Shown in pieces: positions 3,979-22,685 of a stretch of 24,208 nucleotides of DNA. Below the pieces are notes generated by a model. It searched no databases. It was given only the letters and a program-made list of their open reading frames with translations, and was not told where the DNA came from. The DNA lies in the IMG/VR virus record IMGVR_UViG_2529292882_000005, positions 1-24,208 of that record, one strand, 5' to 3'. Origin of the DNA: a virus (taxonomy: Duplodnaviria > Heunggongvirae > Uroviricota > Caudoviricetes). Within the stretch, counting starts at the first letter, position 1. Each line of letters begins with the position of its first letter. Made by a program: the position numbers and the translations under genes.

Positions 3979-4200
3979 GTTTTACGGGTCCTTTCCAGAA
4001 TCTGAAACACCGAGGGTCATAGCACGCGCAAAAACGCGCTATTTATGAAAATTTTTCAGGAAAAAGCATGTCGGTACTTCTCGCGCATAACTATTTGTTT
4101 TTTCTGACATCACATCAGTAAAAGGTCCGACATGAAAACACCCGAAAAAGGGCATTTTAAGCGTTTTCATGTCGGACCCTGTATTTGATAGAGAAATGTA
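3979..4200 (+). other. cos packaging site (cosQ-like, cosN region, cosB with three R-type repeats and an AT-rich IHF-like spacer)
   Basis: ttttacgggtcctttcc (3979-3995) and cgctatttatgaaaattttt (4037-4056) closely match the sequences flanking lambda cosN as I remember them. Three copies of CATGTCGGNNC at 4068-4078 (+), 4124-4134 (inverted) and 4168-4178 (+). Lies directly upstream of the Nu1-like gene. Confidence 0.7.
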
Positions 4201-4202
4201 TT

Positions 4203-4751
4203 GTGAAAGTTAACAAAAAGAAACTTGCTGAAATTTTCAACGTGGATCCGCGAACGATTGAACGCTGGCAGTCTCAGGGGCTATCTTGCGTCTCCGGAGG
4301 TAGCAAGGGTGTTGAATCGGTGTTTGATACCGCGATGGCAATTCAGTGGTACGCGCAGAGAGAAACTGATATCGAAAACGAAAAGCTCCGCAAAGAACTG
4401 GAAGATTTGCGTGCGGCTGCAGAATCAGATTTACAACCCGGCACCATTGACTATGAACGCTACCGGCTCACCAAAGCACAGGCTGACGCACAGGAGCTGA
4501 AAAATGCCCGTGAAGAAGGGCTGGTGCTGGAAACGGAATTGTTTACCTTCATTCTGCAACGTGTGGCACAGGAGATTTCGGGGATACTTGTACGTGTGCC
4601 GCTGACATTACAGCGTAAATATCCGGATATTTCACCGTCACACCTTGATGTGGTGAAAACTGAAATCGCGAAAGCCTCCAATGTTGCAGCTAAAGCCGGT
4701 GAAAACGTGGGCAGGTGGATAGATGATTTCAGACGCACAGAAGGCAGCTAA
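4203..4751 (+). CDS. nu1: terminase small subunit (lambda Nu1-like)
   Basis: Translation [27 protein letters not shown]...[24 protein letters not shown] matches lambda Nu1 closely. GTG at 4203 aligns with the lambda Nu1 start; the track start TTG at 4185 is the alternative. Confidence 0.9.
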
Positions 4752-6639
4752 TGCAGCCGGTGCGATAGCTACAGGGCTTTTATCTCTCAATATTCCGGTT
4801 CCACTGACGACGGTTCAGTGGGCTGATCAACATTATTATCTGCCGAAAGAATCTTCATACACTCCCGGACAATGGGAAACCCTGCCGTTTCAGGTTGCCA
4901 TTATGAACAGCATGGGAAATGACCGGATCCGCACCGTTAATCTGATTAAATCGGCGCGCGTTGGTTACACCAAAATGCTGTTGGGGGTGGAGGCTTATTT
5001 TATTGAGCATAAATCCCGTAACAGTCTGCTTTTTCAGCCAACAGATTCTGCGGCAGAAGATTTCATGAAATCTCATGTTGAGCCAACGATCAGGGATGTC
5101 CCTGCATTGCTGGAGCTGGCTCCATGGTTCGGAAGAAAGCACCGCGATAATACACTCACCCTGAAGCGTTTTTCCTCCGGTGTGGGGTTCTGGTGCCTGG
5201 GCGGTGCCGCAGCTAAAAACTACCGTGAAAAATCTGTGGATGTGGTCTGCTATGACGAACTCTCCTCGTTTGAACCGGATGTGGAAAAAGAAGGCTCGCC
5301 GACGCTGCTTGGCGATAAACGTATCGAAGGCTCGGTATGGCCTAAATCCATACGTGGCTCAACGCCGAAAATTAAAGGCTCCTGTCAGATTGAGAAAGCC
5401 GCGAATGAATCTGCGCATTTCATGCGGTTTTATGTCCCTTGCCCTCATTGCGGGGAGGCCCAGTATCTGAAGTTTGGCGATGATGCGACGCCGTCTGGCC
5501 TGAAATGGGAGAAGGGTAAACCGGAAACGGTGTATTACCTGTGTGAACATAATGGCTGTGTGATCCGGCAGTCGGAACTTGACCAGACCGACGGACGCTG
5601 GATTTGTGACAATACCGGGATGTGGACGCGCGACGGCCTGGCATTTTACAGCGCCGGTGATGAGGAGATACCGCCACCGCGCTCAATCACGTACCACGTG
5701 TGGACAGCGTACAGTCCGTTCACCACCTGGGTGCAGATTGTCTACGACTGGCTGGATGCGCTGAAGGATCCGAACGGCGTCAAGACGTTTATTAACACCA
5801 CGCTCGGGGAGCCCTATGAAGAGGCTGTGGCAGAAAAGCTGAGTTTTGAGTTGTTACTGGAAAAGGTCTGCCACTATGGTGCGCAGGTTCCCCTGCGGGT
5901 GGTTTACCTGACCGCAGGGATCGACTCCCAGAAAGATCGCTATGAAATTTATGTCTGGGGCTGGGCTCCCGGCGAAGAAGCCTTTCTGATTGATAAGCAA
6001 ATTATCATGGGGCGACCGGAAGACGAGGACACCCTTAAACGTGTTGATACGGTGATCCGGAAAAAATATCGTCATGCTGACGGTACTGAAATTTCCATTT
6101 CCCGTGTCTGCTGGGATACCGGTGGTATCGACCAGGACATTGTGTATCAGCGTTCAAGGAAACACGGCACTTTTTTTGTGCTTCCCATAAAAGGGGCATC
6201 GGTGTACGGCAAGCCGGTGATCACCATGCCCAAAAAGCGCAACCAGCGTGGTGTGTTTTTGTGTGAGGTGGGCTCAGATACCGTCAAGGAAATGCTGTAC
6301 GCCCGTTTTGCCCTGCCAGTGGTCTCTGCCAGTGAAGCCGCCCCGTACACCTTCCGTTTTCCGGATAACCCCGACATTTTTTCGGAAGAAGAGGCGCGTC
6401 AGATCGTGGCGGAAGAGCTGGTGGAGAAGGTGGTTAATGGCAGGGTGAAACTGCTGTGGGATAAAAAAGGACGACGCAACGAAGCCCTCGACTGCCTGGT
6501 ATATGCCTATGCTGCCCTGCGTATTTCAGTTCAGCGGTGGCAGCTGGATCTTGAAGCACTGGCCCGTGCCAGAAGAGATGAGCAGGACGACGATGAGATG
6601 AGTCTGGAAGAAATCGCGGCTGCACTGAGTGGAGGATAA
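4723..6639 (+). CDS. A: terminase large subunit (lambda gpA-like)
   Basis: 638 aa. [58 protein letters not shown] and [33 protein letters not shown] are near-identical to lambda gpA segments. Start overlaps the Nu1 3' end as in lambda. Confidence 0.95.
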
Positions 6640-6642
6640 AGA

Positions 6643-6852
6643 ATGGTTTATACGCATGAAATGCTTTGTGATGCCCGTCGGGCATTACATGAACTGATGA
6701 TCGGACGTGCTGTGGTTTCCGTCAGCAAGGACGGGCGTCAGGTTCAGTATTCGCGGGCGACGATTGGTGAACTGCGTCAGTATATTGAAGAGCTGGAAAG
6801 TGCGCTGGGTGTATCCGGACGGCGTCGCGGCCCGGCAGGAGTGGGGCTGTGA
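6643..6852 (+). CDS. W: head-tail joining protein (lambda gpW-like)
   Basis: 69 aa. ARRALHELMIGRAVVSVSKDGRQVQYSRATIGELRQYIEELE...RRRGPAG resembles lambda gpW. ggagga SD upstream. Confidence 0.9.
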   Translation: MVYTHEMLCDARRALHELMIGRAVVSVSKDGRQVQYSRATIGELRQYIEELESALGVSGRRRGPAGVGL

Positions 6853-8420
6853 ACGGGGAACTGGTGGATCTTCACGGGCAGCCACTGCGGCAGAGTATGG
6901 GGTATTCCGGAGGGGGTACCGGATTTGGCGGGCAGCTTGCGGAATGGCTGCCTGCACCGGAAAGTGCCGACGTGGCGCTCTTACCTTCCATTCAGCTGGG
7001 TAACGCCCGTGCGGATGATCTGGTCCGCAATAACGGTATTGCCGCAAACGCCGTTGAAATTCATAAAGACCATATCGTCGGACACATGTTTCGTCTGAGT
7101 TACCGGCCCAACTGGCGCTGGCTGGGGATGTCGGAAGCCGATTCACATGTCTTTATTGAAGATGTTGAGGCAGCGTGGATGGAATTCTGCGATCCGGTGT
7201 TTGGTTCGATGGATGTGGAGGGGCGTCGCTCGTTTACCGAATTTATTCGTGAAGGGGTGGGCGTTCATACATTTAACGGTGAAATTTTTGTCCAGCCCGT
7301 ATGGGATACGGAATCCACGTCATTATTCCGGACGAAATTCAAGACCATCAGCCCGAAACGTGTCAGTACACCCGGTTATGGTACCGGCGATCGTTTTATG
7401 CGTGCCGGGGTGGAAATCAACCGGTACGGAAAAGCACTGGCCTACCATGTTCAGGAAGATGACTGGCCCGGTTACGGTGTCAGCAACTGGACGCGGATTG
7501 CGGCGACGCTGCCCTCCGGGCGACCGGGAATGATCCATGTGTTTCAGCCGCAGGAGGACGGGCAGACGCGCGGGGCCAACCAGTTTTATTCTGTCATGGA
7601 GCGTCTCAAGATGCTCGACACACTGCAGGCCACGCAACTGCAGTCGGCGGTGGTGCGGGCGATGTATGCCGCGACGATTGAATCCACGCTGGATTCGGAA
7701 AAAGCATTTGAATATATCGCCGGGGTGGGAGATGGCGGTAAAAATCCCCTGAACACCATCATGAAAGGCTACGCGCGTTATTACGCCACCAATACGGTAA
7801 AGCTGGGTGGGGTCCGTATTCCGCATCTTTATCCGGGGGATTCACTGAATCTGCAGACAGCGCAGAATGCAGATAATGGTTTCTCTGAACTGGAAAAGGC
7901 GCTGTTACGTTACATCGCTGCCGGACTGGGGGTGTCCTATGAACAGCTTTCCCGTGATTATTCACAGGTCAGTTATTCCAGTGCCAGGGCATCCGCCAAT
8001 GAGTCGTGGCGGTATTTTATGGGCAAACGAAAATTTGTGGCCAGTCGACTGGCATCACAGATGTTTGCCTGCTGGCTGGAGGAAGCCCTTATTCGCGGTG
8101 TGATCCGCCCGCCGAAATCCCGTTTTTCATTCTGGGAGGCCCGTTCCGGATGGTGTCGTGCCGAGTGGATTGGTGCCGGTCGCATGGCGATTGATGGCCT
8201 TAAGGAAGTGCAGGAAGCGGTGATGCGTATTGAAGGTGGTTTAAGCACGTACGAGAAAGAGCTGGCCCTGATGGGCGATGACTATCAGGAGATTTTCCGT
8301 CAGCAACTGCGTGAAAGCCAGGAGCGACAGGCAGCGGGTCTTCCCCGCCCCATCTGGATAAAGGACACGTTTCAGCAGCAGATCCGACAGACAACGGGAG
8401 AAAAAGGCGATGCGTCGTAA
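6849..8420 (+). CDS. B: portal protein (lambda gpB-like)
   Basis: GTG start overlapping the W stop (GTGA). Long conserved runs versus lambda gpB (ADDLVRNNGIAANA, GQTRGANQFYSVMERLKMLDTLQ, LNLQTAQNADNGFSELEKALLRYIAAGLGVSYEQLSR). Confidence 0.95.
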   Translation: MNGELVDLHGQPLRQSMGYSGGGTGFGGQLAEWLPAPESADVALLPSIQLGNARADDLVRNNGIAANAVEIHKDHIVGHMFRLSYRPNWRWLGMSEADSHVFIEDVEAAWMEFCDPVFGSMDVEGRRSFTEFIREGVGVHTFNGEIFVQPVWDTESTSLFRTKFKTISPKRVSTPGYGTGDRFMRAGVEINRYGKALAYHVQEDDWPGYGVSNWTRIAATLPSGRPGMIHVFQPQEDGQTRGANQFYSVMERLKMLDTLQATQLQSAVVRAMYAATIESTLDSEKAFEYIAGVGDGGKNPLNTIMKGYARYYATNTVKLGGVRIPHLYPGDSLNLQTAQNADNGFSELEKALLRYIAAGLGVSYEQLSRDYSQVSYSSARASANESWRYFMGKRKFVASRLASQMFACWLEEALIRGVIRPPKSRFSFWEARSGWCRAEWIGAGRMAIDGLKEVQEAVMRIEGGLSTYEKELALMGDDYQEIFRQQLRESQERQAAGLPRPIWIKDTFQQQIRQTTGEKGDAS

Positions 8421-10026
8421 TTTATCGCATATTGCCGCCATGGCATTTAATGAGCCGCTTTTACTGGAACCCGCCTATGCGCGGGTTTTCTTTTGCGCGC
8501 TGGGTAAAGAGATAGGGGCCGGCAGCCTTGCCGTTCCTCAGCAGGCTGTTCAGCTTGATGCTGATGGTATGCAACTGGCGGTGACTGACTATATGGCGGG
8601 CGGTCAGCGTCCGGCAAAGAGTTACCAGGTGAAGAATGGCATTGCCATTCTGCCGGTGAGCGGCACGCTGGTGCATAAACTGGGTACCCTGCGGCCTTAC
8701 TCCGGCATGACAGGCTATGACGGTCTGACTGCTCGTCTTCAGATGGCGGTGAATGATCCGGATGTGCGCGGCATTTTGCTGGATATCGACAGCCCGGGCG
8801 GTCAGGCTGCCGGGGCGTTTGACTGTGCTGACATGATTTACCGTCTGCGGGAACAGAAGCCCGTGTGGGCGCTGTGTAATGACATGGCCTGTTCAGCCGC
8901 CATGTTGCTGGCGGCAGCCTGTACCCGTCGGCTGGTCACGCAGACGGCAAAAATTGGTTCGATTGGCGTGATGATGGCGCACACCAGTTATGAGAAACAA
9001 CTGGCACAGGAAGGGGTGGACATCACGCTGATTTACTCCGGGCAGCACAAGGTTGACGGCAACAGTATTCAGGCATTGCCGGCAGGTGTGCGTGCAGATT
9101 TTCAGCGCCGTATTGATGAGGCCCGCCGGATGTTTGTCGACAAGGTGGCGCTTTATACGGGGCTGAGTTCAGAGGCAGTGATGAATACCGAGGCTGCCGT
9201 TTATGACGGTCAGGCAGGCATTGATGCAGGCCTGGCTGATCAACTGATTAATGCTGCAGATGCCGTTGAAGTGATGGTTTCTGCACTGAATGACTCTGTT
9301 ACGAAGGAGAATGCAATGACTGTTAAAAATCTCACCGTTGCTGAAGCGGTGGCCCAGGAAAATCAGCGCGTGATGGGGATCCTGAATTGTCAGGAGGCGA
9401 AAGGGCGCGAGCAACTGGCGCAAATGCTGGCAGGTCAACCTGGAATGACGGTTGAGCAGGCGAAAACGTTGCTGGCTGCTGCGCCGGTTGCCGGTACTGA
9501 CAGCACGGGTGATCAGATTATGGCGCTGCCGGAAGCAAAGGGGCGTGAACAACTGGCACAGATGCTGGCAGGTCAACCGGGGATGACGGTGGCGCAGGCG
9601 AAAGCGTTTCTGGCGGCAGCCCCTGCTGCCGGTGCTGCAGGCGCAGGCGATCAGATTATGGCGTTACCGGAAGCAAAAGGGCGTGAACAACTCGCGCAGG
9701 CGCTGGCTGAACAGCCGGGAATGACCGTTGACCAGGCCAAAACGTTACTGGCGGCGGCACCGGTTGCGGGCTCTGCAAGTGTCGGCGATCAGATTATGGC
9801 GCTGCCGGAGGCGAAAGGGCGCGAACAACTTGCACAGGCACTGACAGAACAGCCAGGAATGACGGTGGCGCAGGCGAAAACGCTGCTGGCAGCCGCGCCG
9901 GCGGCATCGCAACCGTCACAGGAAACACTTTTTGATCGCTTTATGGCACAGCATGCTGCCAGTGCGGTTTCCGGTGGCGGAACTGCCGGGCGCGGGGAGG
10001 AAGACCTGCTGATGAGTATGCCGTAA
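8410..10026 (+). CDS. C: prohead protease / scaffold fusion (lambda gpC-like, S49 ClpP-type), 538 aa, with expanded C-terminal repeat region
   Basis: N-terminal two thirds align with lambda gpC (IAAMAFNEPLLLEPAYARVFFCAL, YSGMTGYDGL, VWALCNDMACSAAMLLAAACTRRLVTQTAKIGSIGVMMAH). The C-terminus carries four tandem 46-aa units related to the lambda Nu3 region. Confidence 0.9.
   Translation: MRRNLSHIAAMAFNEPLLLEPAYARVFFCALGKEIGAGSLAVPQQAVQLDADGMQLAVTDYMAGGQRPAKSYQVKNGIAILPVSGTLVHKLGTLRPYSGMTGYDGLTARLQMAVNDPDVRGILLDIDSPGGQAAGAFDCADMIYRLREQKPVWALCNDMACSAAMLLAAACTRRLVTQTAKIGSIGVMMAHTSYEKQLAQEGVDITLIYSGQHKVDGNSIQALPAGVRADFQRRIDEARRMFVDKVALYTGLSSEAVMNTEAAVYDGQAGIDAGLADQLINAADAVEVMVSALNDSVTKENAMTVKNLTVAEAVAQENQRVMGILNCQEAKGREQLAQMLAGQPGMTVEQAKTLLAAAPVAGTDSTGDQIMALPEAKGREQLAQMLAGQPGMTVAQAKAFLAAAPAAGAAGAGDQIMALPEAKGREQLAQALAEQPGMTVDQAKTLLAAAPVAGSASVGDQIMALPEAKGREQLAQALTEQPGMTVAQAKTLLAAAPAASQPSQETLFDRFMAQHAASAVSGGGTAGRGEEDLLMSMP
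9316..10026 (+). CDS. nu3: putative scaffolding protein (lambda Nu3-like) from an in-frame internal start within gene C
   Basis: In-frame ATG at 9316 preceded by AAGGAGA (9304-9310). The product MTVKNLTVAEAVAQENQRVMGILNCQEAKGRE... parallels lambda Nu3, which is nested in-frame in the 3' part of C. Confidence 0.55.
   Translation: MTVKNLTVAEAVAQENQRVMGILNCQEAKGREQLAQMLAGQPGMTVEQAKTLLAAAPVAGTDSTGDQIMALPEAKGREQLAQMLAGQPGMTVAQAKAFLAAAPAAGAAGAGDQIMALPEAKGREQLAQALAEQPGMTVDQAKTLLAAAPVAGSASVGDQIMALPEAKGREQLAQALTEQPGMTVAQAKTLLAAAPAASQPSQETLFDRFMAQHAASAVSGGGTAGRGEEDLLMSMP
9394..9945 (+). repeat. tandem direct repeat, period 138 nt (46 codons), 4 copies (last one partial/divergent), inside the scaffold-coding part of gene C
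   Basis: Unit starts at 9394, 9532, 9670 and 9808. Each encodes EAKGREQLAQ(M/A)LA(G/E)QPGMTV(E/A/D)QAK(T/A)LLAAAP...GDQIMALP. Copies differ by scattered, mostly silent or conservative changes. Confidence 0.85.
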
Positions 10027-10064
10027 GCGATATCCGGAATTCAGATAAATCAGGAGGCTGAAAA

Positions 10065-10400
10065 ATGATTAAAACCACCACGGAAAAGCGCGCGGATGTG
10101 CACATTTTTGCCGGAAACGATCCGGCGCATACCGCAAAAGCCACCAGTGGTATCAGTGCCGCCATGCCTGCACTGACGCCACTGATGCTGGATGACGCCA
10201 CCGGTAAACTGGTGGCATGGGATGGTCAGAAAGCCGGAACGGCAGTGGGCGTGCTGGCTCTGGCGCTTACCGGGACCGAGTCCATGCTGACGTACTACAA
10301 AAGCGGTACATTTGCCACTGAGTCGCTGGTCTGGCCTGATTCTGTGGATGCGGTGAAAAAAGCCAACGCATTTGTGGGAAGTGCCATCAGCCACGCCTGA
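10065..10400 (+). CDS. D: head decoration protein (lambda gpD-like)
   Basis: 111 aa. NDPAHTAKATSGISAAMPALTPLMLDDATGKLVAWDG...YYKSGTF matches lambda gpD. caggagg SD upstream. Confidence 0.9.
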   Translation: MIKTTTEKRADVHIFAGNDPAHTAKATSGISAAMPALTPLMLDDATGKLVAWDGQKAGTAVGVLALALTGTESMLTYYKSGTFATESLVWPDSVDAVKKANAFVGSAISHA

Positions 10401-10420
10401 TGGTGAAGTGATTGACTGAA

Positions 10421-10455
10421 AAAACGGGTCGCGATGCGGCCCGTTTGTGTTTCTG
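10421..10455 (+). terminator. putative intrinsic terminator or attenuating hairpin between D and E
   Basis: aacgggtcgc-gat-gcggcccgtt stem (one G-U wobble) followed by tgtgtttct (interrupted T tract). Confidence 0.45.
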
Positions 10456-10469
10456 AAGGAAAATAAATT

Positions 10470-11498
10470 ATGGGGTTATTTACCACGCGTCAGTTACTCG
10501 GGTACACCGAGCAGAAAGTGAAATTTCGTGCGCTGTTTCTGGAGCTGTTCTTTCGTCGCACGATCACTTTCCATACTCAGGAAGTCATGCTGGATAAAAT
10601 TACCGGCAAAACACCGGTTGCGGCGTATGTGTCTCCGGTGGTGTCAGGCAAAGTGCTGCGCAGCCGTGGTGGTGAAACCCGCGTGTTACGTCCCGGTTAT
10701 GTAAAACCAAAACACCGCTTTGATTATCAGCAGGCAGTGGAACGTCTTCCGGGGGAAGATCCGTCCCGTCTTAATGACCCGGCCTACCGCCGCCTGCGTA
10801 TTCTGACGGACAACCTGAAACAGGAAGAGCAGGCGATTGTGCAGGTGGAAGAAATGCAGGCGGTCAGTGCCGTTCTGCAGGGTAAATACACCATGAGCGG
10901 CGAGCAGTTTGAGACAGTGGAAGTGGATTTTGGGCGTTCTGCCGCCAATAACATTACGCAGGCTGGCGGACGCGAATGGTCAAAGCAGAATGCTGACACC
11001 TTTGATCCGACGCATGATCTGGATGCGTACTGCGATTTTGCTTCCGGCACCATCAATATCGCGATTATGGACGGCACGGTCTGGCGTATGCTGAACGGTT
11101 TTAAACTGTTCCGTGAAAAACTGGATACCCGCCGTGGCTCCAAATCTGAGCTGGAAACGGCACTGAAAGACCTGGGTTCCGTGGTTTCCTTTAAGGGCTG
11201 GTACGGCGATCTGGCTGTCGTGGTGGCGAAGACAACGTATGTTGACGAAAACGGGGATGAACAGCGTTATCTGCCGGAAGGTACACTGATTCTGGGAAAC
11301 ACTCAGGCGGAGGGCGTCCGTTGCTATGGCGCAATCCAGGATAATCAGGCGCTGAGTGAAGGGATCACCTCTGCGATTCGTTATCCGAAACACTGGGAGG
11401 AAGTGGGGGATCCTGGTTGCGAATATACCATGACGCAGTCTGCGCCGTTGATGGTGCTGCCGGATCCGGATGCGTTTGTGGTGGTTCAGGTGAAATAA
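10470..11498 (+). CDS. E: major capsid protein (lambda gpE-like)
   Basis: 342 aa. YVSPVVSGKVLRSRGG, PGYVKPKH, EEMQAVSAVLQGKYTMSGEQFE, LDTRRGSKSELETALKDLG and TMTQSAPLMVLPDPDAFVVVQV match lambda gpE. Confidence 0.95.
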   Translation: MGLFTTRQLLGYTEQKVKFRALFLELFFRRTITFHTQEVMLDKITGKTPVAAYVSPVVSGKVLRSRGGETRVLRPGYVKPKHRFDYQQAVERLPGEDPSRLNDPAYRRLRILTDNLKQEEQAIVQVEEMQAVSAVLQGKYTMSGEQFETVEVDFGRSAANNITQAGGREWSKQNADTFDPTHDLDAYCDFASGTINIAIMDGTVWRMLNGFKLFREKLDTRRGSKSELETALKDLGSVVSFKGWYGDLAVVVAKTTYVDENGDEQRYLPEGTLILGNTQAEGVRCYGAIQDNQALSEGITSAIRYPKHWEEVGDPGCEYTMTQSAPLMVLPDPDAFVVVQVK

Positions 11499-11501
11499 GA
11501 C

Positions 11502-11530
11502 GGGGCGGGATATACCCGCCTTTTTCTTTA
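11502..11530 (+). terminator. rho-independent terminator after the major capsid gene
   Basis: ggcggg-atata-cccgcc hairpin followed by tttttcttta. Confidence 0.7.
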
Positions 11531-11548
11531 TCGCACGGGAGAGATGTG

Positions 11549-11914
11549 ATGACAAAAGAGCAGATGACGGAACGCCTTCAGGCGCTGGCAGTGATTCTGG
11601 GGCGTGAAGCAGATATTTCAGGTTCAAAAGCCGATCTTGAGCAGCGTCTGGCGGAATGGGAGGAGGAGGCCGCTGGATTCGATGGGGAGGAGACGGGGAA
11701 GGAAGAGGTGGGCAACGATGCATCCGGCGACGGAATGCATTCTGAGCAGGGACTCGCCCGGGTGCGTATGCTGAAAACGGCGCATATGCCAGCCTGTGAT
11801 GCTGTGACGGGAAAAATGTTGATGTTTGCCCGGGCCTTCAGTGTTGTGCTGGTTAATGAAGCCACAGTTCCCGCGTTGCTGGCAGACGGTCTGGCAGAAA
11901 AAATCCGGGAGTGA
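11549..11914 (+). CDS. FI: DNA packaging protein (lambda gpFI-like)
   Basis: ATG at 11549 with gggagag SD. MTKEQMTERLQAL...SKADLEQRLAEWEEE parallels the lambda FI N-terminus (MTKDELIARLRSL...TKEELALRVAELKEE). The track ORF 11417..11914 has an unsupported upstream start. Confidence 0.8.
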   Translation: MTKEQMTERLQALAVILGREADISGSKADLEQRLAEWEEEAAGFDGEETGKEEVGNDASGDGMHSEQGLARVRMLKTAHMPACDAVTGKMLMFARAFSVVLVNEATVPALLADGLAEKIRE

Positions 11915-12318
11915 TGATGTTCAATAATCTGTTCGATCAGGCCATGAGTGATGCGGATGACATCATCCTGGATACGATGGGGACGGAAATCAGCATATAT
12001 CCGGGCGGCACGGAAAGAAAAATCCGTGCCGTTTTTGATGCCCCGGCAGATAACACCGGGATTAACACTGGCAGCGGCGAAATTCGTGATACTGCGCCCG
12101 TGTTATTTACCCGGAGCGCATGGGCCGCCGGTCTGAAAAAATATGACAGGGTCATGATCCACGGCGAACCCTATCAGGTAGTCGATCCCGGCTGGGATGA
12201 GTCAGGCACTGCGGGTCAGGGGGTGATTACCATCACCCTTGCGCGTGGAGAGCCGGGGAGAAATACACCTGCTGCCCCTGTCCGACCGAGTAAACGTTAT
12301 GGCAGTCAGAGAGCATGA
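11914..12318 (+). CDS. FII: head-tail connector / head completion protein (lambda gpFII-like)
   Basis: ATG at 11914 overlapping the FI stop (TGATG). FNNLFDQAMSDADDIILDTMGTEISI...RAVFDAP...GSGEIRDTAPVLFTRS parallels lambda FII. Confidence 0.85.
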   Translation: MMFNNLFDQAMSDADDIILDTMGTEISIYPGGTERKIRAVFDAPADNTGINTGSGEIRDTAPVLFTRSAWAAGLKKYDRVMIHGEPYQVVDPGWDESGTAGQGVITITLARGEPGRNTPAAPVRPSKRYGSQRA

Positions 12319-13021
12319 ACGAAGCAGTGCCCGGCAGCGACGGCTGGCACGAAACCTCGTCGTCGATATTGATGAAGATGAGGTGCTGAAAATTATCGCT
12401 AAACTGGGTGGGTCAAAAAGTCAGATCCGTAAAGCCTGGGGCGTGGCGCTGAAAAGAGCCGCGTCTGCACTGCGGATGAAGGCTATGGTAGAGTTTAAAA
12501 AACAGGTTGCCCCACGCAGTCAGAAAATGATCAAAAAGCGTGTTCTGCATAATTTTATCATTCGTCGTAACGGTGATGAGTTTGATGAGGCGAAGGTATG
12601 GTTCGGTCTGAACGCCATCAAAGTACGCGATCTGCGCGGACGCATCAGTGGGGGACGATGCGGCGAACGCCATCAGTTGCGCGATGAGCGGGGGCGTTTT
12701 GCACCAGCTTCTCACCGCAGGAAGGCACGGGAGATCCGTTTTAAACCTGCCGGGGAATCCCTGCCTGTCAGCACCTGGTCAACGGATGATGCCTTTATCA
12801 ACCAGTTCGAAGCGGAAAATCGTAACGGACGTATATCAAAAAGGAAAACGATACTGATCCGACAGACATCCGGACGACGGAGGGTGCGTGAAGCGGAAAT
12901 TGATATTTATGAAGCCATGCTGAACCGTATAGAGGATTTTGTTTTTCCGGATGCGGAAGTACTGATCCTGAAAAATTTTGAGCATGAACTGAAATTCCGG
13001 GTATTTAAGGGGCTGGAGTGA
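12299..13021 (+). CDS. hypothetical basic protein (about 240 aa), putative tail completion protein at the head-tail module junction (tentatively lambda gpZ-like)
   Basis: Uninterrupted frame. ATG at 12299 overlaps the FII 3' end. Arg/Lys-rich. Occupies the position of Z in lambda gene order (FII-Z-U). Family assignment is tentative (composition and position only); the start codon is uncertain. Confidence 0.5.
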   Translation: MAVREHERSSARQRRLARNLVVDIDEDEVLKIIAKLGGSKSQIRKAWGVALKRAASALRMKAMVEFKKQVAPRSQKMIKKRVLHNFIIRRNGDEFDEAKVWFGLNAIKVRDLRGRISGGRCGERHQLRDERGRFAPASHRRKAREIRFKPAGESLPVSTWSTDDAFINQFEAENRNGRISKRKTILIRQTSGRRRVREAEIDIYEAMLNRIEDFVFPDAEVLILKNFEHELKFRVFKGLE

Positions 13022-13584
13022 TGGAGCCATTGATGATGGGCGCCTGGCATCAGGCGGTGATTGACAGTCTGAAACAAATTCCCTGGGTGGAAGATGCCGA
13101 TGAGTACCCGGAAAAAGTGACGCAACTGGTGACGCCTGCTGTGTTTGTGGATGTACCGGGCTGGGACAAGGCTCATTTTGCCGACGGGCAAACGCGGGTC
13201 ACGCTGAAATGTGATCTGTTTGTGGTGACAGACCGGGCCGGGAAGACGGAAAACGTGCCAAAACCGCAGATTTTTGCCCGTTGTCTCGCGATGGATTTAT
13301 CTGACTGGATTGAGGGAGCCACGTTCGGGCTGGATAACGTTGATCCGGCGGTTTTTATCGATGCTGAGGTGGATACCTTCGACCGGCTGCTGGACGACTA
13401 CATCGTTTTCCGTGTCTCTTTTGAACAGGACATTCCGGTCGGCGAAGATCCGTTTGCGGTTCCGGCAGGTGCGCCGTTACAGGAAGTCTGGCTGGGTAAA
13501 GTACCGGAAACCGGCAAGAGACATGAGCAGGATTATCGTCTTATCTGGAAATCGGAGGGCACCGGTGATGAGTCTGGCGGATGA
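13021..13584 (+). CDS. hypothetical protein (about 187 aa), putative tail terminator / tail completion protein
   Basis: ATG at 13021 overlapping the upstream stop (TGATG); the track start is GTG at 13018. Acidic protein lying between the lambda-type head-completion genes and baseplate gene V. Function inferred from position only. Confidence 0.5.
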   Translation: MEPLMMGAWHQAVIDSLKQIPWVEDADEYPEKVTQLVTPAVFVDVPGWDKAHFADGQTRVTLKCDLFVVTDRAGKTENVPKPQIFARCLAMDLSDWIEGATFGLDNVDPAVFIDAEVDTFDRLLDDYIVFRVSFEQDIPVGEDPFAVPAGAPLQEVWLGKVPETGKRHEQDYRLIWKSEGTGDESGG

Positions 13585-14191
13585 AGTGGCAGAGTTACGC
13601 CGCAGGGTGGCGGACATGGTCCGTCGCGGCGTGGTGGACGAGGTGATCCCGGGTAGCCCGGTGATGGTTCGGGTGGATATCGGGGATGTGCTTTCGCCTC
13701 CGTTGCCCTGGATTCAGGTACAGTCCGGGCGCTACATGCAGGTCAGTAATTATCCGTCCCCCGGAGATGCCGTTACAGTGATATCGGAGGCGGGCGATCT
13801 GCGTAACGGTCGGGTGTATCCGGGGCCCAATATTGACGCCATTCCTGTCCCTGAGGGCAGTGAATACGAACATGTTATTTTGTTTGATACCGGAACGGAA
13901 ATCCGTTACGACCGTCAGGCTAATGTCCTGTCCATCACGCTGGCTGAAGGCGGCAGCTATAAAATTACAGGCAGGGGAACCCTGGACGGTCCGGTAGAAA
14001 TCACAGATACCCTGACCGTACAGGGTAAAGCAACCATGAATGCTGAGGCGGTGGTTAAGGCGGATCTGATGGTCGGTGGTGAGGTTTCTGATTATCACGG
14101 AACGATGAGTCAAATCAGAATTGTCTATAACGGTCACAATCACCGGGGCGACAGTGGTGGCAGCACCGGACAGCCTGGTCAGCAAATGTAA
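13568..14191 (+). CDS. baseplate assembly / spike protein (P2 gpV-like)
   Basis: ATG at 13568 (MSLADEVAELRRRVADMVRRG...). The C-terminal HNHRGDSGGSTGQP resembles the P2 gpV C-terminus (HKHPGDSGGTTGSP). The track ORF 13274..14191 has a spurious upstream extension. Confidence 0.85.
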   Translation: MSLADEVAELRRRVADMVRRGVVDEVIPGSPVMVRVDIGDVLSPPLPWIQVQSGRYMQVSNYPSPGDAVTVISEAGDLRNGRVYPGPNIDAIPVPEGSEYEHVILFDTGTEIRYDRQANVLSITLAEGGSYKITGRGTLDGPVEITDTLTVQGKATMNAEAVVKADLMVGGEVSDYHGTMSQIRIVYNGHNHRGDSGGSTGQPGQQM

Positions 14192-14224
14192 TCCCCTTTC
14201 AGTTCTTTTTCCGGAATAAACAAC

Positions 14225-14581
14225 ATGATTGGTATTGATTCAGCCACCGGCAGATATCTGCACGGTAACGAACATCTGCGCCAGTCCGTCACTGATATTT
14301 TGTCAACACCGGTCGGCAGCCGGGTCCTGCTCAGGGAATACGGCAGCAGACTTTTCAGTCTGCTTGATAACCCACAGGATGATTTCACGCGGGTGAGAAT
14401 TGTCCGTGAAACGGTAACCGCCCTTGAACGCTGGGAACCCCGTCTGACTCTCCGGCGGGTGGAAGTGACGTGGACAGGAGAAGGAAGTGCGTGGCTGACG
14501 CTTGTCGGGGTGAATAACGAAACTCAGGACACGATTCGACTCGAGGAGATAAAAATTGGCAACGTCTCAGGCAATTATTGA
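14225..14581 (+). CDS. baseplate protein (P2 gpW / gp25-like)
   Basis: 118 aa. ILSTPVGSRVLLREYGSRLFSLLDNPQD...ALERWEPRLTLRRVEV matches the GPW/gp25 family. Confidence 0.85.
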   Translation: MIGIDSATGRYLHGNEHLRQSVTDILSTPVGSRVLLREYGSRLFSLLDNPQDDFTRVRIVRETVTALERWEPRLTLRRVEVTWTGEGSAWLTLVGVNNETQDTIRLEEIKIGNVSGNY

Positions 14582-15470
14582 TCTGTCCGCGATACCAGTA
14601 CCGGATGCGGTGGAGGTGCCGGACACCGCTGTGCTGGTCACTCAGATAGTGGCGAAGTATCAGGAGCTGGATACGTTGTTTTCGGCTCTGGTGGAATCTG
14701 ATCCCGCGTATAAATGGGCAGAGGCGCTGGCTTATCGGGTGGCGCTGATGCGCCAGCAGATAAATGATGCTGTCCGTGCTGTACTGCTTGCCAGTGCCGG
14801 TGGGAACGATCTGGATCAGGTTGGCGCGAATTATCAGGTTCAGCGGCTGGTTATTACCCCGGCAGACGACAGCACCATTCCGCCCACGCCGGCGGTGTAT
14901 GAAGATGATGACGCTTTTCGCGAACGTATCCAGTTGTCATGGGCACGGCTCAGCACCGCCGGCGCGAAAAATGCGTATCACTATTTTGCACAAAGTGCTG
15001 ATCCTGATGTGCTGGATGTGAAGGCTTACGGACCGGAAACACATTCGCAGGAAGGCCGGGTTTTTCTTTATGTGTTATCCCGCTCCGGAAATGGCACTGC
15101 ATCACAACCCCTGCTGGATAAGGTGGCAGCATCAGTCTGTGATGATGAAACCCGTCCCCTGACGGATTTTGTCAGTGTCCGGACGGCAGAAATTATTCCC
15201 TACGATGTGGTGGCGGATATTCATATTCCCTACGGACTGGATGGTGAACTGGTTATGGCAAATGCCCGCAAGGCGCTGCAGTCATACACTGACAGCGTCC
15301 ACCGGATTGGCTCGGTGGCATCCCGTTCTGGCATGGATGGTGCCCTTCACCAGACCGGGGTGATTACGGTGAATCTGACCTCTCCGGGCAGTGATATCGT
15401 TCCTGCGATGGGGCAGGCACCGTGGTGCCGTAAGATAACGCTGAATAAGGTGGAGACAACTGATGAATGA
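14556..15470 (+). CDS. baseplate protein (P2 gpJ-like)
   Basis: AIIDLSAIPVPDAVEV..., AVRAVLLASAGGNDLDQVGANYQVQRLVITPADDSTIPPTPAV closely match P2 gpJ. Non-ATG start (TTG at 14556) overlapping the gpW-like 3' end; exact start uncertain. Confidence 0.85.
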   Translation: MATSQAIIDLSAIPVPDAVEVPDTAVLVTQIVAKYQELDTLFSALVESDPAYKWAEALAYRVALMRQQINDAVRAVLLASAGGNDLDQVGANYQVQRLVITPADDSTIPPTPAVYEDDDAFRERIQLSWARLSTAGAKNAYHYFAQSADPDVLDVKAYGPETHSQEGRVFLYVLSRSGNGTASQPLLDKVAASVCDDETRPLTDFVSVRTAEIIPYDVVADIHIPYGLDGELVMANARKALQSYTDSVHRIGSVASRSGMDGALHQTGVITVNLTSPGSDIVPAMGQAPWCRKITLNKVETTDE

Positions 15471-16053
15471 CGATATCAGGAGCATACTGCCGGTCAGTGC
15501 CAGTCTGGCAGAGCGGGTGGTGGACTGTGTCGCCGGAGATATGCTGTCAGACATAGCGGTCTGCCTGATCCGCTATGTGAAAAATCCCGATTTATGTCCT
15601 GCTGAATTGCTGCCATGGCTGGCCTGGGAAATGGCGGTGGATACCTGGAATGAACACTGGACGGAGACGGAAAAAAGGTCTGCGATAAAACGTGCTGCTT
15701 ACATCCACCGCCACAGAGGGACTAAAGCGGCGCTGATGGCATCGCTGGCTGACAGTCCCTTCCGATCGCAGATTGTTGAGTGGTATGAGCAGACCCCACC
15801 CGGGGAGCCGTATACCTTCCGTCTGAACGTGGAGCAGAAGGATTTACCGGTGCTGATGAATGATCATCAGGATCTGAAGCATGCGGTGCTCCGTGCCAAA
15901 AATCTGCGCAGCTGGTTCAGTATTCACGTTTACGGGAACAGCACAGGGCGTGGATTTGGTTACGGCTATGTGATGGCGACAGAAAAAATCAGAAGTACCG
16001 GTGTGACAACAAAGACAGTGCCCACAGGCGGGCAGAGTGAGGCAGGTGTATGA
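15463..16053 (+). CDS. baseplate / tail fibre attachment protein (P2 gpI-like)
   Basis: 196 aa. ATG overlaps the J stop. LPWLAWEMAVDTWNEHWTETEKRSAIKRAAYIHRHRGTKAAL is typical of P2 gpI. Confidence 0.85.
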   Translation: MNDDIRSILPVSASLAERVVDCVAGDMLSDIAVCLIRYVKNPDLCPAELLPWLAWEMAVDTWNEHWTETEKRSAIKRAAYIHRHRGTKAALMASLADSPFRSQIVEWYEQTPPGEPYTFRLNVEQKDLPVLMNDHQDLKHAVLRAKNLRSWFSIHVYGNSTGRGFGYGYVMATEKIRSTGVTTKTVPTGGQSEAGV

Positions 16054-17279
16054 ATGGACTGATTCTGACAACGTCCGGCGCTGCAGAAATTGAAGCAGCA
16101 TATCAGAACGGGCAAACCGTGACCGTCCGGCATGTTCTGCTTGGTGACGGGGGCGGGCGGGCATTGCCATCCACGCCGGATGAAATGGCAGCAATGACAT
16201 CGTTGTACGGCGAATTCGGGCAGGAACCCTTTTCCGACGGTGCGGTGGAGGAGGGCTTCATCAGCGGGGATATTGTGATTGACTGTAAATCATACCCCGG
16301 TAAAACCCTTCGAGAACTGGGGATGATCAGCGACAGAGGTACGCTTATCGCGTACGGACGTTATCCGGACACCTTTTTACCAGACCAGACGGACTCCGTT
16401 ATCAAGGAAGTTATTCTGACGCTGGTTCTTGGGCTGACGCACGCACAAAACGTGGTGCTGGAAGTTGATCCGGACAGGGCCATTATTACTCAGGAAATCG
16501 GAGACAGACGCTATCTGCAACGAAAAAAGAATCTTTCGGATGTGGAAGACAAGGATGAGGCTGTTGAAAACCTCGGATTAAAACCCACGGTGGACAAGGC
16601 AAAAAATGCCGTTCAGCGTGATGGCGACACCATGACAGGAAAGCTGACGCTGCCCCAGACCTCCGGATTTGGTGTTAACACTGACAATACCCTGGGAGGT
16701 AACTCAATTGCTTTCGGGGATAACGATACAGGTATAAAACAAAACGGCGACGGCATTCTGGATGTTTATGCGAATGGACAGCATGTATTTCGTTTCCAGA
16801 ATGGTGTGGCGATAGCGTTAAAAAATATTCAGGCCGGAAATGCTAAAAAATTCACGTTATCCAGCGCCAACAACTCCACGAAAAACGCAACGTTTAATTT
16901 ATGGGGTAATTCATCCCGACCTGTAGTTGCAGAGCTTGGTGATGATTCCGGCTGGCATTTTTACAGCCAGAGAAATACCGATGGCAGTATCACATTCGCT
17001 GTAAACGGACAGATGACCCCATCAAACTATGGAAATTTCGATGCCCGTTATCAGCAGCGAAATGGCGGCGTGCAGGATGTGCGTTATGGTTCCGAAATGT
17101 ATTACAACCCGGGAGGTAACCAGGTATCCTGGACATTTCGCTCACCTTCAGGCCACGGGTTATCCGGTATTAATGTGCAGGAAACCGGAAGTAATTCGGC
17201 AGATAACATCGGCGGCGTGTATTACCGTCCGCTTCAGAAACTGATCAACGGCACCTGGTATAACGTGGCGAGTGTTTAA
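16050..17279 (+). CDS. tail fibre protein (P2 gpH-like; conserved N-terminal baseplate-binding part and C-terminal receptor-binding part)
   Basis: 409 aa. C-terminal GGNSIAFGDNDTGIKQNGDGILDVYANGQHVFRFQNGVAIALKNIQAG...VVAELGDDSGWHFYSQRNTDGSITFAVNGQMTPSNYGNFD...INGTWYNVASV matches the P2 gpH C-terminus. Shorter than P2 H (about 670 aa). Confidence 0.85.
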   Translation: MNGLILTTSGAAEIEAAYQNGQTVTVRHVLLGDGGGRALPSTPDEMAAMTSLYGEFGQEPFSDGAVEEGFISGDIVIDCKSYPGKTLRELGMISDRGTLIAYGRYPDTFLPDQTDSVIKEVILTLVLGLTHAQNVVLEVDPDRAIITQEIGDRRYLQRKKNLSDVEDKDEAVENLGLKPTVDKAKNAVQRDGDTMTGKLTLPQTSGFGVNTDNTLGGNSIAFGDNDTGIKQNGDGILDVYANGQHVFRFQNGVAIALKNIQAGNAKKFTLSSANNSTKNATFNLWGNSSRPVVAELGDDSGWHFYSQRNTDGSITFAVNGQMTPSNYGNFDARYQQRNGGVQDVRYGSEMYYNPGGNQVSWTFRSPSGHGLSGINVQETGSNSADNIGGVYYRPLQKLINGTWYNVASV

Positions 17280-17281
17280 CA

Positions 17282-17824
17282 ATGTTGCATTTAAAAAATA
17301 TTACTGCGGGCAATCCAAAAACCGCAGAACAATATCAGATGACAAAAAAATATGATGTTACCTGGCTTTTTTCGGAAGACGACAAAAACTGGTATGAAGA
17401 ACTGAAGAATTTCGCCAGCGACACAATAAAAATAGCTTACACCGGAGACGGGCGCGTGGTGTGGGTCGGTAAGGATGTGACAGGTATTGAACCCCGTAAC
17501 GCCAGTGTTATTGAAGTTCCTGATATTACCGCTAACCGCCGCATTACCGCACCGGGTTACTGGTTCTACCGCAATGATGAATTTGTTTTTGACTACAAAC
17601 TTAAAGCGGAAGATGAGCGTGATGCACTGTTAAAACAGGTCAGCATCATGACCAGCGAATGGGGAAAAGACCTGCTGCTGGGATTAATCAGTGACGAAGA
17701 CAGGGAGAAACTGAAAGCGTACCGCATTTACGCGAAATCGCTGCAGGCGATGGATTTCAGCGCTATTACGGATAAGACCACTTACAACAATATTAGCTGG
17801 CCTGAGCAGCCACAAAATACCTGA
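17282..17824 (+). CDS. tail fibre assembly protein (P2 gpG-like)
   Basis: MLHLKNITAGNPKTAEQYQMTKKYDVTWLFSEDDKNWYEELKNF...TIKI...VIEVPDIT parallels P2 gpG. Confidence 0.85.
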   Translation: MLHLKNITAGNPKTAEQYQMTKKYDVTWLFSEDDKNWYEELKNFASDTIKIAYTGDGRVVWVGKDVTGIEPRNASVIEVPDITANRRITAPGYWFYRNDEFVFDYKLKAEDERDALLKQVSIMTSEWGKDLLLGLISDEDREKLKAYRIYAKSLQAMDFSAITDKTTYNNISWPEQPQNT

Positions 17825-17842
17825 AAAAGAAGTTAATCATCT

Positions 17843-17867
17843 GACCGCCTGAGGGCGGTTTTTTTAT
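17843..17867 (+). terminator. rho-independent terminator between the fibre-assembly and sheath genes
   Basis: accgcc-tgag-ggcggt hairpin followed by ttttttt, 12 nt before the sheath ATG. Confidence 0.8.
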
Positions 17868-17878
17868 GGGAGAAATGT

Positions 17879-19354
17879 ATGTCCGGATTACATGGTGTTG
17901 AAACCATTGAACTGACGACAGGCACGGTTGCCGTGCAGACCATCTCCACGGCAGTGATTGGCCTGGTGGGGACAGCGCCGGACGCCTCTGGTGGTGTATG
18001 CGCTTCCGGCACAGCCGGCTCCTGGCTGCTGGGAACGGCGCTGGATTTCACGGCGAAACAGGAAGGTCGGGCCGGTAATAAGATTTCGGTTGTTGCTGTG
18101 GCTGCCACAGAACAAAACGCGCAGACAGTGGCCTCGCTGAAAGGTACGACCCTGACGATAACACTGGGGACGGACGAACACAGCCAGGTTAACGCCAAGG
18201 CGGACCGTGTGACTGAAGTGGTGAATGCGCTGGGGGATTCGCCTGTGACGGCGGCTGTCAGCACCCTGAATGCAGGAAGTGCTGAAAATAATGTGGTGTT
18301 GCCGTTCAGCCTGACGTTATCCGGCGGAGAAGATGAGGCGTTCCCGGTCAATACACCAGTGGTGGTGGCAGGGGCCATTACTCAGGCAGGGAAACTGGGC
18401 ACAGCCGGAACATTATACCCGGCCCTGCGAGATATTTTTGACCAGACTGGTGCGCTGGTGATTGTGGTGCGCGCAGAAAGTAAAACAAAGGCGAAAGAGG
18501 CTGAACAGCGTGTGGCGGTGATTCAGGCCATGGAGGCGCTGACAGAAAGTAAGGGCGTGACAGGCTATCAACCGCGCATCCTCATTGCCACGGGGTACAG
18601 TGAGGATGATGGCGTGGCAAAGGCGCTGGAAACGTATGCCGCGAAGCTGCGGGCTGTGGCCTATATTGACTCGCCCTCAATGGCAACGCCGCAGGATGTG
18701 GTCCAGCGGCGCGCGTCATTTGGTGGGCGTGTGGAGCTGCTGCGTCCGCGCGTGTCAGTGACGGATGACAGCGGGCAAACGATATTTCGTCCATATTCGG
18801 CTCGTGCTGCCGGGCTGCGTGCCCGTATTGATTACGAAAAAGGGTGGTGGTGGTCCAAATCAAACCAGGACGTGATGAATATCACCGGTCTGGAGCAGGT
18901 GGATACGTTTATTCTCGGGGAGCAGAACTGCACGGCAAACCTGCTGAACATGGAAAATATCTCCACCATTATTCGCCATGACGGTTTTAAACACTGGGGT
19001 AACCGTCTGTGCACATCCCACAGTCAGTGGCGTTTTGAGCCGGTACGCCGCACTGCAGATGTGATTGAGGACAGCATCCAGGAGGCCATGCTGCCTTATG
19101 TCGATCGTCCGCTTGATCGGGATGTGGCAGACGACATTCTTGGCAGCATTAATGCCTATATGCGTCAGCTTAAAAATCTGGGCGCGATCCACGGTGGCAG
19201 TGCATGGCTGAACGATGAACTGAACACTGCAGAAACCCTGGCGGCAGGGCAGTTGTATATCGATTATGACTTTGGGCCGAAGTCACCACTGGAGCGCCTG
19301 ACACTGCGGGCAATGATTAACAATAAACTGGCGCTGGAGGAACTGACGGTATGA
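17879..19354 (+). CDS. contractile tail sheath protein (P2 gpFI-like), 491 aa, with an extra N-proximal segment
   Basis: N-terminus (HGVETIELTTGTVAVQTISTAVIGLVGTA) and C-terminal two thirds (RILIATGY, LRAVAYID, GLRARIDYEKGWW, IRHDGFKHWGNR, GQLYIDYDF...LERLTLR) match P2 sheath. About 100 residues between them have no counterpart in my memory of P2 FI. Confidence 0.9.
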   Translation: MSGLHGVETIELTTGTVAVQTISTAVIGLVGTAPDASGGVCASGTAGSWLLGTALDFTAKQEGRAGNKISVVAVAATEQNAQTVASLKGTTLTITLGTDEHSQVNAKADRVTEVVNALGDSPVTAAVSTLNAGSAENNVVLPFSLTLSGGEDEAFPVNTPVVVAGAITQAGKLGTAGTLYPALRDIFDQTGALVIVVRAESKTKAKEAEQRVAVIQAMEALTESKGVTGYQPRILIATGYSEDDGVAKALETYAAKLRAVAYIDSPSMATPQDVVQRRASFGGRVELLRPRVSVTDDSGQTIFRPYSARAAGLRARIDYEKGWWWSKSNQDVMNITGLEQVDTFILGEQNCTANLLNMENISTIIRHDGFKHWGNRLCTSHSQWRFEPVRRTADVIEDSIQEAMLPYVDRPLDRDVADDILGSINAYMRQLKNLGAIHGGSAWLNDELNTAETLAAGQLYIDYDFGPKSPLERLTLRAMINNKLALEELTV

Positions 19355-19869
19355 TGACGGGTGAAAAAAAACTGTTGCGCGCATGGGCGTTATTTCTTCC
19401 TGGCGGGATCCGCCTTCAGGGGGCACATGAATACACGCCACCTGCCATTAATATCACGACAGTGGATATCAAAACCGGCGCAATGGATGCACCGGTGGCA
19501 GTGGATGACGGCATGGCAGCGCTGACCTGTTCGTTTAAGATTTATGGTTATGATGTTGCCATGCTTACGCTGCTGGGATTACAGGCCGGGCTTTATTCGC
19601 CGGAGATCGTTGTCCGCCAGGCTTACCAGGTGGGGAATGCGACCAGCGGACAGGTGGAAACCCTGCAGGGGATGATCACCAGTATCACGCCGGATGCACG
19701 TCCCGCAACGTCACAGGCAGAGGCTTCGGTGACGGTGGAAATGTCACTGAGTTATTACCGTCAGGCTGTTGACGGTGTGGAAACCATCTGCATTATTCCG
19801 GAGGAATTTGTGCGCCGTATTAACGGCGTTAATGTTCTGGCGGATCTGAAAAAAATCATCCGGGTTTAA
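19351..19869 (+). CDS. tail tube protein (P2 gpFII-like)
   Basis: 172 aa. ATG overlaps the sheath stop (ATGA). Follows the sheath gene as in P2. C-terminal INGVNVLADLKK resembles the P2 tube C-terminus. Confidence 0.85.
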   Translation: MMTGEKKLLRAWALFLPGGIRLQGAHEYTPPAINITTVDIKTGAMDAPVAVDDGMAALTCSFKIYGYDVAMLTLLGLQAGLYSPEIVVRQAYQVGNATSGQVETLQGMITSITPDARPATSQAEASVTVEMSLSYYRQAVDGVETICIIPEEFVRRINGVNVLADLKKIIRV

Positions 19870-19888
19870 TCCGGGGATCCTGTCATTC

Positions 19889-19917
19889 AGGCGGCTCAGG
19901 CCGCCTTTTCTTTTTAA
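19889..19917 (+). terminator. rho-independent terminator after the tube gene
   Basis: aggcggc-tcag-gccgcct hairpin followed by tttctttttaaa. Confidence 0.8.
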
Positions 19918-19928
19918 AGGAGATGCTT

Positions 19929-20231: not shown

Positions 20232-20348
20232 CAGCGATACGGCGTGCCGGTGCCTGGTTCGGGTGGTCTCCCGGAGATGTGATGGCGCTGCCGTATACGG
20301 ATTTTGTGGCAATGATGCTGGCGGAGTCGGAAGAGAGGAAGCGATGTT

Positions 20349-22492: not shown

Positions 22493-22685
22493 CGGCGATA
22501 TGCTGGATGACATCTGCCAGAGACATTATGGCAGTGCCGGGCTTAACCAGTCACTGGCGGCGGTACTGGAAGCCAATCCCGGGCTGGCTGACTTTGGTCC
22601 GGTGTATCCCGCCGGGGTGGAAATCGTGTTGCCTGACTGGACATATGAACCGGAAATGAAGGAGACGTTTCAGTTATGGGACTGA
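22467..22685 (+). CDS. tail protein X (P2 gpX-like, LysM-type)
   Basis: 72 aa. GDMLDDICQRHYG...VLEANPGLADFGPVYPAGVEIVLPD parallels P2 gpX (GDTLDAICVRYYG...VLAANPGLAELG...). Confidence 0.8.
   Translation: MAKNWRTTDGDMLDDICQRHYGSAGLNQSLAAVLEANPGLADFGPVYPAGVEIVLPDWTYEPEMKETFQLWD

Follow-up and report, generated by a model that had tools for sequence, protein, structure and literature searches.

A four-unit variant of the Nu3-like scaffold repeat in the head protease gene of a lambda-like Escherichia coli prophage

The stretch of DNA analyzed here (the window) comprises 24,208 nucleotides (nt) of IMG/VR virus record IMGVR_UViG_2529292882_000005. Its source is a lambda-like prophage of Escherichia coli, and the gene of interest, at positions 8410–10026 (on the + strand, as are its parts and the adjacent portal, D-type, and E-type genes described below), is the head protease/scaffold gene, the homolog of lambda C. 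The part of the gene for the C-terminal third of the protein contains four in-frame tandem copies of a unit with a 46-codon period, and this array makes up most of a nested, Nu3-like gene. The repeat is an already known feature of the family, and the window array is a copy-number variant of it. As far as we found, the new elements are the four-unit array derived from one unit type, the range of one to five units among relatives, and the pattern of concerted evolution. We favor, as the more probable explanation, that the array forms a multivalent internal scaffold of the "beads-on-a-string" type, obtained by amplification of a three-helix module.

The repeat units and the nested scaffold gene

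In the window, Tandem Repeats Finder detects a single strong array (9393–9901, period 138, 3.7 copies, 79% matches, score 564). All unit starts of the original prediction (9394, 9532, 9670, and 9808) fall in frame 0, at amino acids (aa) 329, 375, 421, and 467. In this DNA register, unit 1 covers 9394–9531 (aa 329–374), unit 2 covers 9532–9669 (aa 375–420), and unit 3 covers 9670–9807 (aa 421–466). For unit 4, only a 32-codon core is repeated (9808–9903, aa 467–498), and beyond it the sequence passes into the C-terminal tail. Pairwise identity among units 1–3 is 80%–87% for amino acids and 78%–80% for nucleotides. With a 48-aa profile that starts at the short helix before EAKGRE, four complete modules are present at aa 317–363, 364–409, 412–455, and 456–501 (9358–9912), each with 79–89 bits. 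The figure of 3.7 copies depends on the placement of the unit boundary; at the protein level, the full modules are four, and four tandem units with a 138-nt period had been correctly predicted.

The nucleotide differences among units 1–3 are found mainly at wobble positions, as had been noticed (19–23 of 27–30 differences fall on third codon positions). Nei–Gojobori estimates between the 32-codon cores give 0.77–1.9 synonymous (dS) and 0.05–0.12 nonsynonymous (dN) substitutions per site, with ω (dN/dS) of 0.03–0.14. Random back-translation of the same peptides, drawn with the codon usage of the array gene itself, leads to an expected nucleotide identity of 72%–75% (±2%–3%), close to the 78%–80% observed; the constraint therefore acts on the peptide sequence and not on the DNA, and nothing points to one at the RNA level. 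Exact nucleotide matches between pairs of window units extend over 9–21 nt at most. The window copies are old, and purifying selection acts on the protein sequence of each of them. The minimal pairing length for RecA is about 23–27 bp, and with such short shared runs the array should therefore be recombinationally stable. The array is not an artefact of assembly, since about 95 complete E. coli genomes share this 1617-nt gene.

Upstream of the array, a strong Shine-Dalgarno sequence, AAGGAG (9304–9309), sits 6 nt ahead of an in-frame ATG (9316–9318). Both align with the annotated ribosome-binding site and start of gene 6 of phage 21, in agreement with the original placement of the repeats in the Nu3-equivalent part of the gene. 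A methionine is present at the position of ATG 9316, or in the adjacent aligned column, in 118 of 118 homologs. As in gpC-type genes, such an internal in-frame start would yield a separate scaffold protein. The putative nested product (9316–10026, 236 aa) consists of a 14-residue leader with an N-terminal helix, the four modules, and a 37-residue C-terminal tail. Two PHROG families, 8399 ("head scaffolding protein") and 8940 ("capsid assembly protein"), each match in four stretches. The tail, taken from the end of the DNA repeat (9904–10023, aa 499–538), is itself conserved; it contains a fifth DQIMAL-like helix (LFDRFM) and a terminal LLMSMP, and residues F508, M512, G522, M535, and P538 are invariant or nearly so among the 118 homologs.

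The predicted order of elements within a module is a short helix (DQIMAL), the EAKGRE motif, a helix (QLAQMLA), a loop (GQPGMT), and a last helix (VEQAKTLLAAAP). The AlphaFold2 model of the full protein (118-sequence alignment) is modest, with a mean predicted local distance difference test score (pLDDT) of 63.5. In this model, the units (pLDDT of about 70–83) each have three helices, the first of them short and the last two separated by the GQPGMT loop; the linkers between units are of low confidence. A single unit modeled with a 92-sequence unit alignment reaches a pLDDT of 83.5 and a predicted template modeling score of 0.60, with three helices at residues 4–9, 18–25, and 32–41. The nearly invariant unit residues (I8, E13, A14, G16, R17, E18, L20, A21, L24, A25, A35, L39, and P43) comprise a hydrophobic core and the charged EAxGRE motif.

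An S49 (SppA/ClpP-like) peptidase domain lies within the N-terminal two-thirds of the 538-aa protein, as in gpC. PF01343 (S49 peptidase) matches aa 146–290 (1.6e-33) and PHROG 53 ("head maturation protease") matches the protein at 1.9e-142; the match to TIGR00706 (SppA_dom, 3.8e-31) stays under the equivalog cut-off, as expected for a phage relative. Residue Ser162 (codon 8893–8895), in the motif NDMACSAA, aligns with Ser166 in the NDMNCSAG motif of lambda and is invariant across the 118 homologs. Ser166 is reportedly the catalytic residue of lambda gpC, from work attributed to Medina and coworkers in 2010. The identification of the gene as a lambda C homolog was therefore sound, and so was the estimate of about 100 additional codons (538 vs. 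439 aa). The identity of the protein to phage 21 gp5 is 68%, and that to lambda C is 58%. Among the isolated phages in the collection, the closest C-like proteins are those of phage 21 and Gifsy-1 (65%–68% at the amino-acid level). RefSeq already contains the 538-aa protein, labeled "S49 family peptidase."

Copy number and turnover of the units

The 48-aa profile finds one module in lambda C (aa 357–403), as the original prediction had it, and three in phage 21 gp5. Among the 120 best full-length homologs, 76 have three units, 40 have four, and three have five; comparison across homologous prophages, which had been proposed as a check, shows relatives with one to five units. The three-unit proteins (490–516 aa) are found in Salmonella (including Gifsy-1), E. 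coli, and Shigella. The four-unit proteins are exactly 538 aa long in 33 of the 40 cases and occur in E. coli, E. albertii, E. marmotae, Citrobacter, and Salmonella. Within the lineage of the window prophage, the count is usually four; Cronobacter and one metagenomic cluster carry three units (492 aa).

A five-unit allele (1755 nt, 584 aa) is present in nine complete genomes of Shiga toxin-producing E. coli (STEC), including E. coli STEC367 (locus L003:3001-4755). In this allele, the first unit is triplicated, and the extra copies are 92%–96% identical with exact runs of 81–106 nt; with runs of that length, these new copies should be prone to further unequal crossing-over. In STEC367, the adjoining capsid and portal proteins are 98.2% and 99.4% identical, respectively, to those of the window. 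A short locus in E. coli UMNF18 (L006:2501-3781) was considered as a low-copy allele and rejected, as it is a truncated prophage remnant. It belongs to a degraded second prophage copy, whose C-like gene breaks off within the repeats, directly next to part of a gene for a shikimate transporter.

In a tree of the units, those of the three-unit phage 21/Salmonella arrays group according to position, which marks the array of these relatives as old and positionally orthologous. All units of the window lineage form one clade beside the Tri1-type units of phage 21 and often cluster by genome. In the four-unit relatives (82%–97% identity; P0148, P0149, P0155, P0162, and P0163), the count stays at four and the internal units are reshuffled. 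The unit order is W2-W2-W2-W4 in C. portucalensis, W2-W2-W3-W4 in the Salmonella relative, and W1-W2-W2-W4 in that of E. albertii; in P0162, all units are W1-like, and in P0163, all are W3-like. Independent rearrangements occur in the phage 21 group, with the order u1u2u1u2u3, a hybrid u3/u2 unit, and a u1/u2 fusion leaving two units. The arrays evolve by concerted evolution with occasional unequal crossing-over, and in the four-unit relatives gene conversion seems to be more frequent than change in copy number. Maintenance of the count at four during reshuffling of unit identity suggests that the number is not arbitrary in this lineage. The stable count fits stabilizing selection on number without proving it, because gene conversion alone preserves a count. 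The view that the array is maintained and not the result of recent slippage is thus correct for the window, with its old and diverged copies, but not for the other genomes of the lineage that show recent duplication or homogenization. The array offers a clean case of a coding repeat kept stable by synonymous divergence in the window and homogenized by conversion in sister genomes.

Outside the enterobacteria, almost all family members have one unit. When 1.84 billion representative proteins were searched with a profile, the module was found in 2,180 clusters; among the best 139 new matches, 123 have one unit, 13 have two, and three have three. In the wider family, 44 of 47 long protease fusions have one unit, and a tail of 34–68 aa follows the last unit in 45 of the 47 (the remaining two tails are of 132 and 179 aa). 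Distant single-unit S49 protease fusions have D-type and E-type capsid genes downstream. Arrays of at least three units look like a speciality of enterobacterial lambdoid heads, with four to five units at the upper end.

Standalone proteins of 163–223 aa with one or two modules are found in Bradyrhizobium/Afipia, in compact islands (L009:5001-5492, L010:5001-5492, and L011:5001-5672). The islands contain an integrase, DUF6074 genes, a small-terminase-like gene, the module protein, a 297-aa gene directly downstream of it, and a tape-measure-like gene. They may be satellite-like elements with their own scaffold-type protein. The Bradyrhizobium 297-aa gene was considered as a capsid gene and not retained, since its product has no match in Pfam or PHROG and no BLASTP similarity to the capsid protein of the window.

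A speculated effect of copy number on capsid size or geometry was rejected as unsupported. The five-unit STEC367 allele lies beside the nearly identical capsid protein mentioned above, and genome sizes do not follow the number of units: the window prophage has about 46–49 kb, the one-unit lambda 48.5 kb, and the three-unit phages 43–54 kb. A near-identical prophage in E. coli 52F4, integrated at ompW with a duplication of this gene at its boundaries, measures about 48.6 kb, including a 2.5-kb insertion sequence (IS) element. This prophage is the closest copy in a complete genome, with an overall match to the window of about 96%. Compared with positions ~1–2000 of the window, it contains ISEc12 (IS21 family; L004:10932-13234) between a TerB-like gene and the lysis genes.

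Possible roles of the module

By homology to lambda Nu3 and phage 21 gp6, we infer a scaffold role for the array. A small, autonomously folding three-helix module, the conserved core of a lambda-type internal scaffold, would have been amplified in tandem and in frame. Two products would be made, a full-length gpC-like fusion of protease and scaffold and the 236-aa Nu3-like scaffold from the start at 9316, in which four modules would be carried on flexible Ala/Gly/Ser/Thr linkers ahead of the conserved C-terminal tail. The weak contact would be identical for all modules, and its partner would be either the E-type capsid protein or another subunit of scaffold or portal. With four modules, avidity or cross-linking would increase as the procapsid nucleates, and the protease domain would be carried inside; the protease would then destroy the scaffold. 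The conserved tail, instead of the modules, may be the capsid-binding element. In P22, SPP1, phi29, and 80alpha, helical or helix-turn-helix motifs of the scaffold bind the coat protein (PMC11565965). By analogy, the mechanism would fit these motifs and also P2 gpO (PMC7552001).

A different explanation is that the number of modules is a tolerated length polymorphism, in which one module suffices, as in lambda, and the extra ones are harmless products of unequal crossing-over. The three-, four-, and five-unit alleles beside nearly identical capsid and portal proteins are in line with it, as are the independent changes in copy number in several lineages (e.g., P0164, P0235, and P0050), the single unit in most of the wider family, and the absence of a relation between genome size and copy number. 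However, redundant copies should decay or be lost, and the low ω at near-saturated dS is observed in every window copy. Further, the phage 21/Salmonella group has an old, positionally orthologous array of three units, and four units are kept across the five host groups listed above despite the turnover of unit identity. We regard such neutrality as unlikely.

Still somewhat less likely, in our judgment, is a role of the modules at initiation, where they would bind the portal (as in a lambda "preconnector" of gpB, gpC, and Nu3) or self-associate, leaving capsid binding to the tail. The GenBank label of phage 21 gp4, gp5, and gp6 is "head-tail preconnector" proteins. A conserved tail is always present after the last unit, and the EAxGRE motif is conserved far beyond recognizable capsid proteins, suggestive of a partner that is conserved as well. 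Other phages have their coat-binding element at the extreme C terminus (PMC11565965; PMC7552001). Against portal binding, the module occurs in the Bradyrhizobium islands, and no portal gene was recognized there in the 10-kb neighborhood.

A bolder extension of the multivalent scaffold, for which we see a slim chance, is that selection acts on the number of modules as a tunable parameter in the assembly of lambda-type heads, with an optimum for each lineage (one in lambda, three in the phage 21 group, and four here) and units that turn over by conversion. Were it true, module number would set the valency of the scaffold and hence the rate, fidelity, or stoichiometry of nucleation. Shifts like the five-unit STEC allele or the two- to five-unit variants of the phage 21 group would then be adaptive, for example against capsid-hijacking satellites with module proteins of their own, like the Bradyrhizobium islands.

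Lambda Nu3 is degraded during maturation. Each unit with its linker could, accordingly, be a cassette for the protease, with regularly spaced cleavage sites and peptides of about 46 aa that leave the procapsid. The annotated processing site of lambda gpB is Ala/Gly (REYA/GYHG), and Ala-Gly is present in linkers 1–3 of the window protein (PVAGTD, PAAGAA, and PVAGSA); the resemblance is weak, and Ala-Gly is expected by chance in linkers rich in these two residues. Moreover, the linkers are the least conserved segments and the conserved residues lie in the helices, as for a folded binding module, so that we hold a cleavage cassette to be very improbable.

An element acting at the level of DNA or RNA (a regulatory array or a recombination hotspot), recent slippage, or an assembly artefact has a negligible chance of explaining the window array: despite the pattern-matched "CII binding sites" in this region of the phage 21 record and the long exact runs of the STEC367 duplication, synonymous sites between the window units are essentially randomized, the substitutions concentrate at third positions of the + frame, and the gene has an identical length in about 95 complete genomes, and DNA-level function and slippage were rejected on the synonymous saturation.

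The lambda head is a textbook assembly system, yet we found no function assigned to the conserved module inside Nu3. The natural alleles with one to five copies, beside nearly identical capsid proteins, constitute a ready-made series for effects of scaffold valency. Such an allelic series could address the nucleation, fidelity, and stoichiometry of procapsids.

Gene context and comparison with known systems

As in lambda, the array gene is located between a portal gene and D-type and E-type head genes. The lambda-family portal gene (6897–8420; PF05136, 7e-95) overlaps the start of the C-like gene by 11 nt. Downstream are a head decoration protein of the lambda D family (10065–10400; PF02924, 6.5e-23) and the major capsid protein of the lambda E family (10470–11498; PF03864, 9.2e-66). 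The latter, with 342 aa and 59% identity to lambda E, is the presumed client of the scaffold. The RefSeq annotation of the near-identical prophage agrees with the portal-C-D-E order. Other lambda-type head genes around the array gene are those for Nu1, the gpA terminase, FI, and an FII-like protein.

Positions 4185–23764 of the window form a mosaic virion module, in which lambda-type genes for head and packaging (Nu1, A, W, portal, C, D, E, FI, and FII-like) are joined directly to a P2-type contractile tail. The tail set comprises baseplate V/W/J/I, fiber, sheath (17879–19354), tube, E/E', tape measure, U, X, and D. The same succession of a lambda-type head module and a P2-type contractile tail is found in the 52F4 prophage. 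The P2-type tail assembly chaperone pair E/E' is at 19930–20346, with an open reading frame that ends at 20231. A candidate −1 slippery site, of seven T followed by G (about 20188–20195), is present as expected for such a pair, and the shifted frame can extend to just before the start of the tape-measure gene at 20349.

P2 gpO is, to our knowledge, not an S49 peptidase, and we know of no module repeats reported in it; it is set beside the window protein by description only. Like the window protein, it combines a protease at the N terminus with a scaffold domain at the C terminus (PMC7552001). P22 gp8 and the scaffold motifs of phi29, SPP1, and 80alpha resemble the window protein in that a small helical motif is carried by an internal scaffold that is flexible elsewhere, and probably also in the way they act (PMC11565965). 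We did not detect a relationship, in sequence or fold, between the module and the coat-binding domains of P22-type or other solved scaffolds. In P22, the coat-binding domain is single-copy and at the extreme C terminus, whereas the window module is repeated and then followed by a separate tail.

With lambda gpC/gpNu3, the window protein has in common the S49 protease, the Ser motif, the in-frame C-terminal scaffold region, and the B-C-D-E gene order. Lambda differs by a single module, a 36-aa lambda-specific insertion upstream of the module, and a much shorter tail. The Nu3 start in lambda is also about 60 codons further upstream than that of the window, and it has no obvious Shine-Dalgarno sequence. 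The Gifsy-1 gpC homolog and the 490–516 aa S49 peptidases of Salmonella and E. coli belong to the same tandem-module family, but with three units of the Tri1/2/3 type.

The closest known system is the head operon of phage 21, whose gp5 and gp6 were reportedly studied by Smith and Feiss in the early 1990s. In its GenBank record (M81255), three repeat regions are annotated in gene 6 as "Tri1 box," "Tri box," and "Tri3 box," with the remark "function unknown; putative." These boxes, at aa 324–358, 371–407, and 418–455 of gp5, coincide with the units defined by the profile, and a multi-copy array is therefore not new. Full-text literature searches, in which the Smith and Feiss paper on phage 21 and the Nu3/gpC papers of the Catalano laboratory were outside reach, found no description of these repeats. 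The finding is modest, and current understanding is unchanged by the array. Phage 21 and the window share the gene layout, 68% amino-acid identity, the nested start, and a tandem EAKGRE...AAAP module, in frame, in the scaffold part, present four times in the window. In the unit tree, no window unit groups with Tri2 or Tri3, so that there is no one-to-one orthology to Tri1, Tri2, and Tri3. Phage 21 is a siphovirus, whereas the head module of the window is joined to a P2-type contractile tail. In phage 21, the three boxes are diverged from one another and positionally orthologous across E. coli and Salmonella prophages; in the window, the four units are all Tri1-like and result from amplification and homogenization specific to the lineage.

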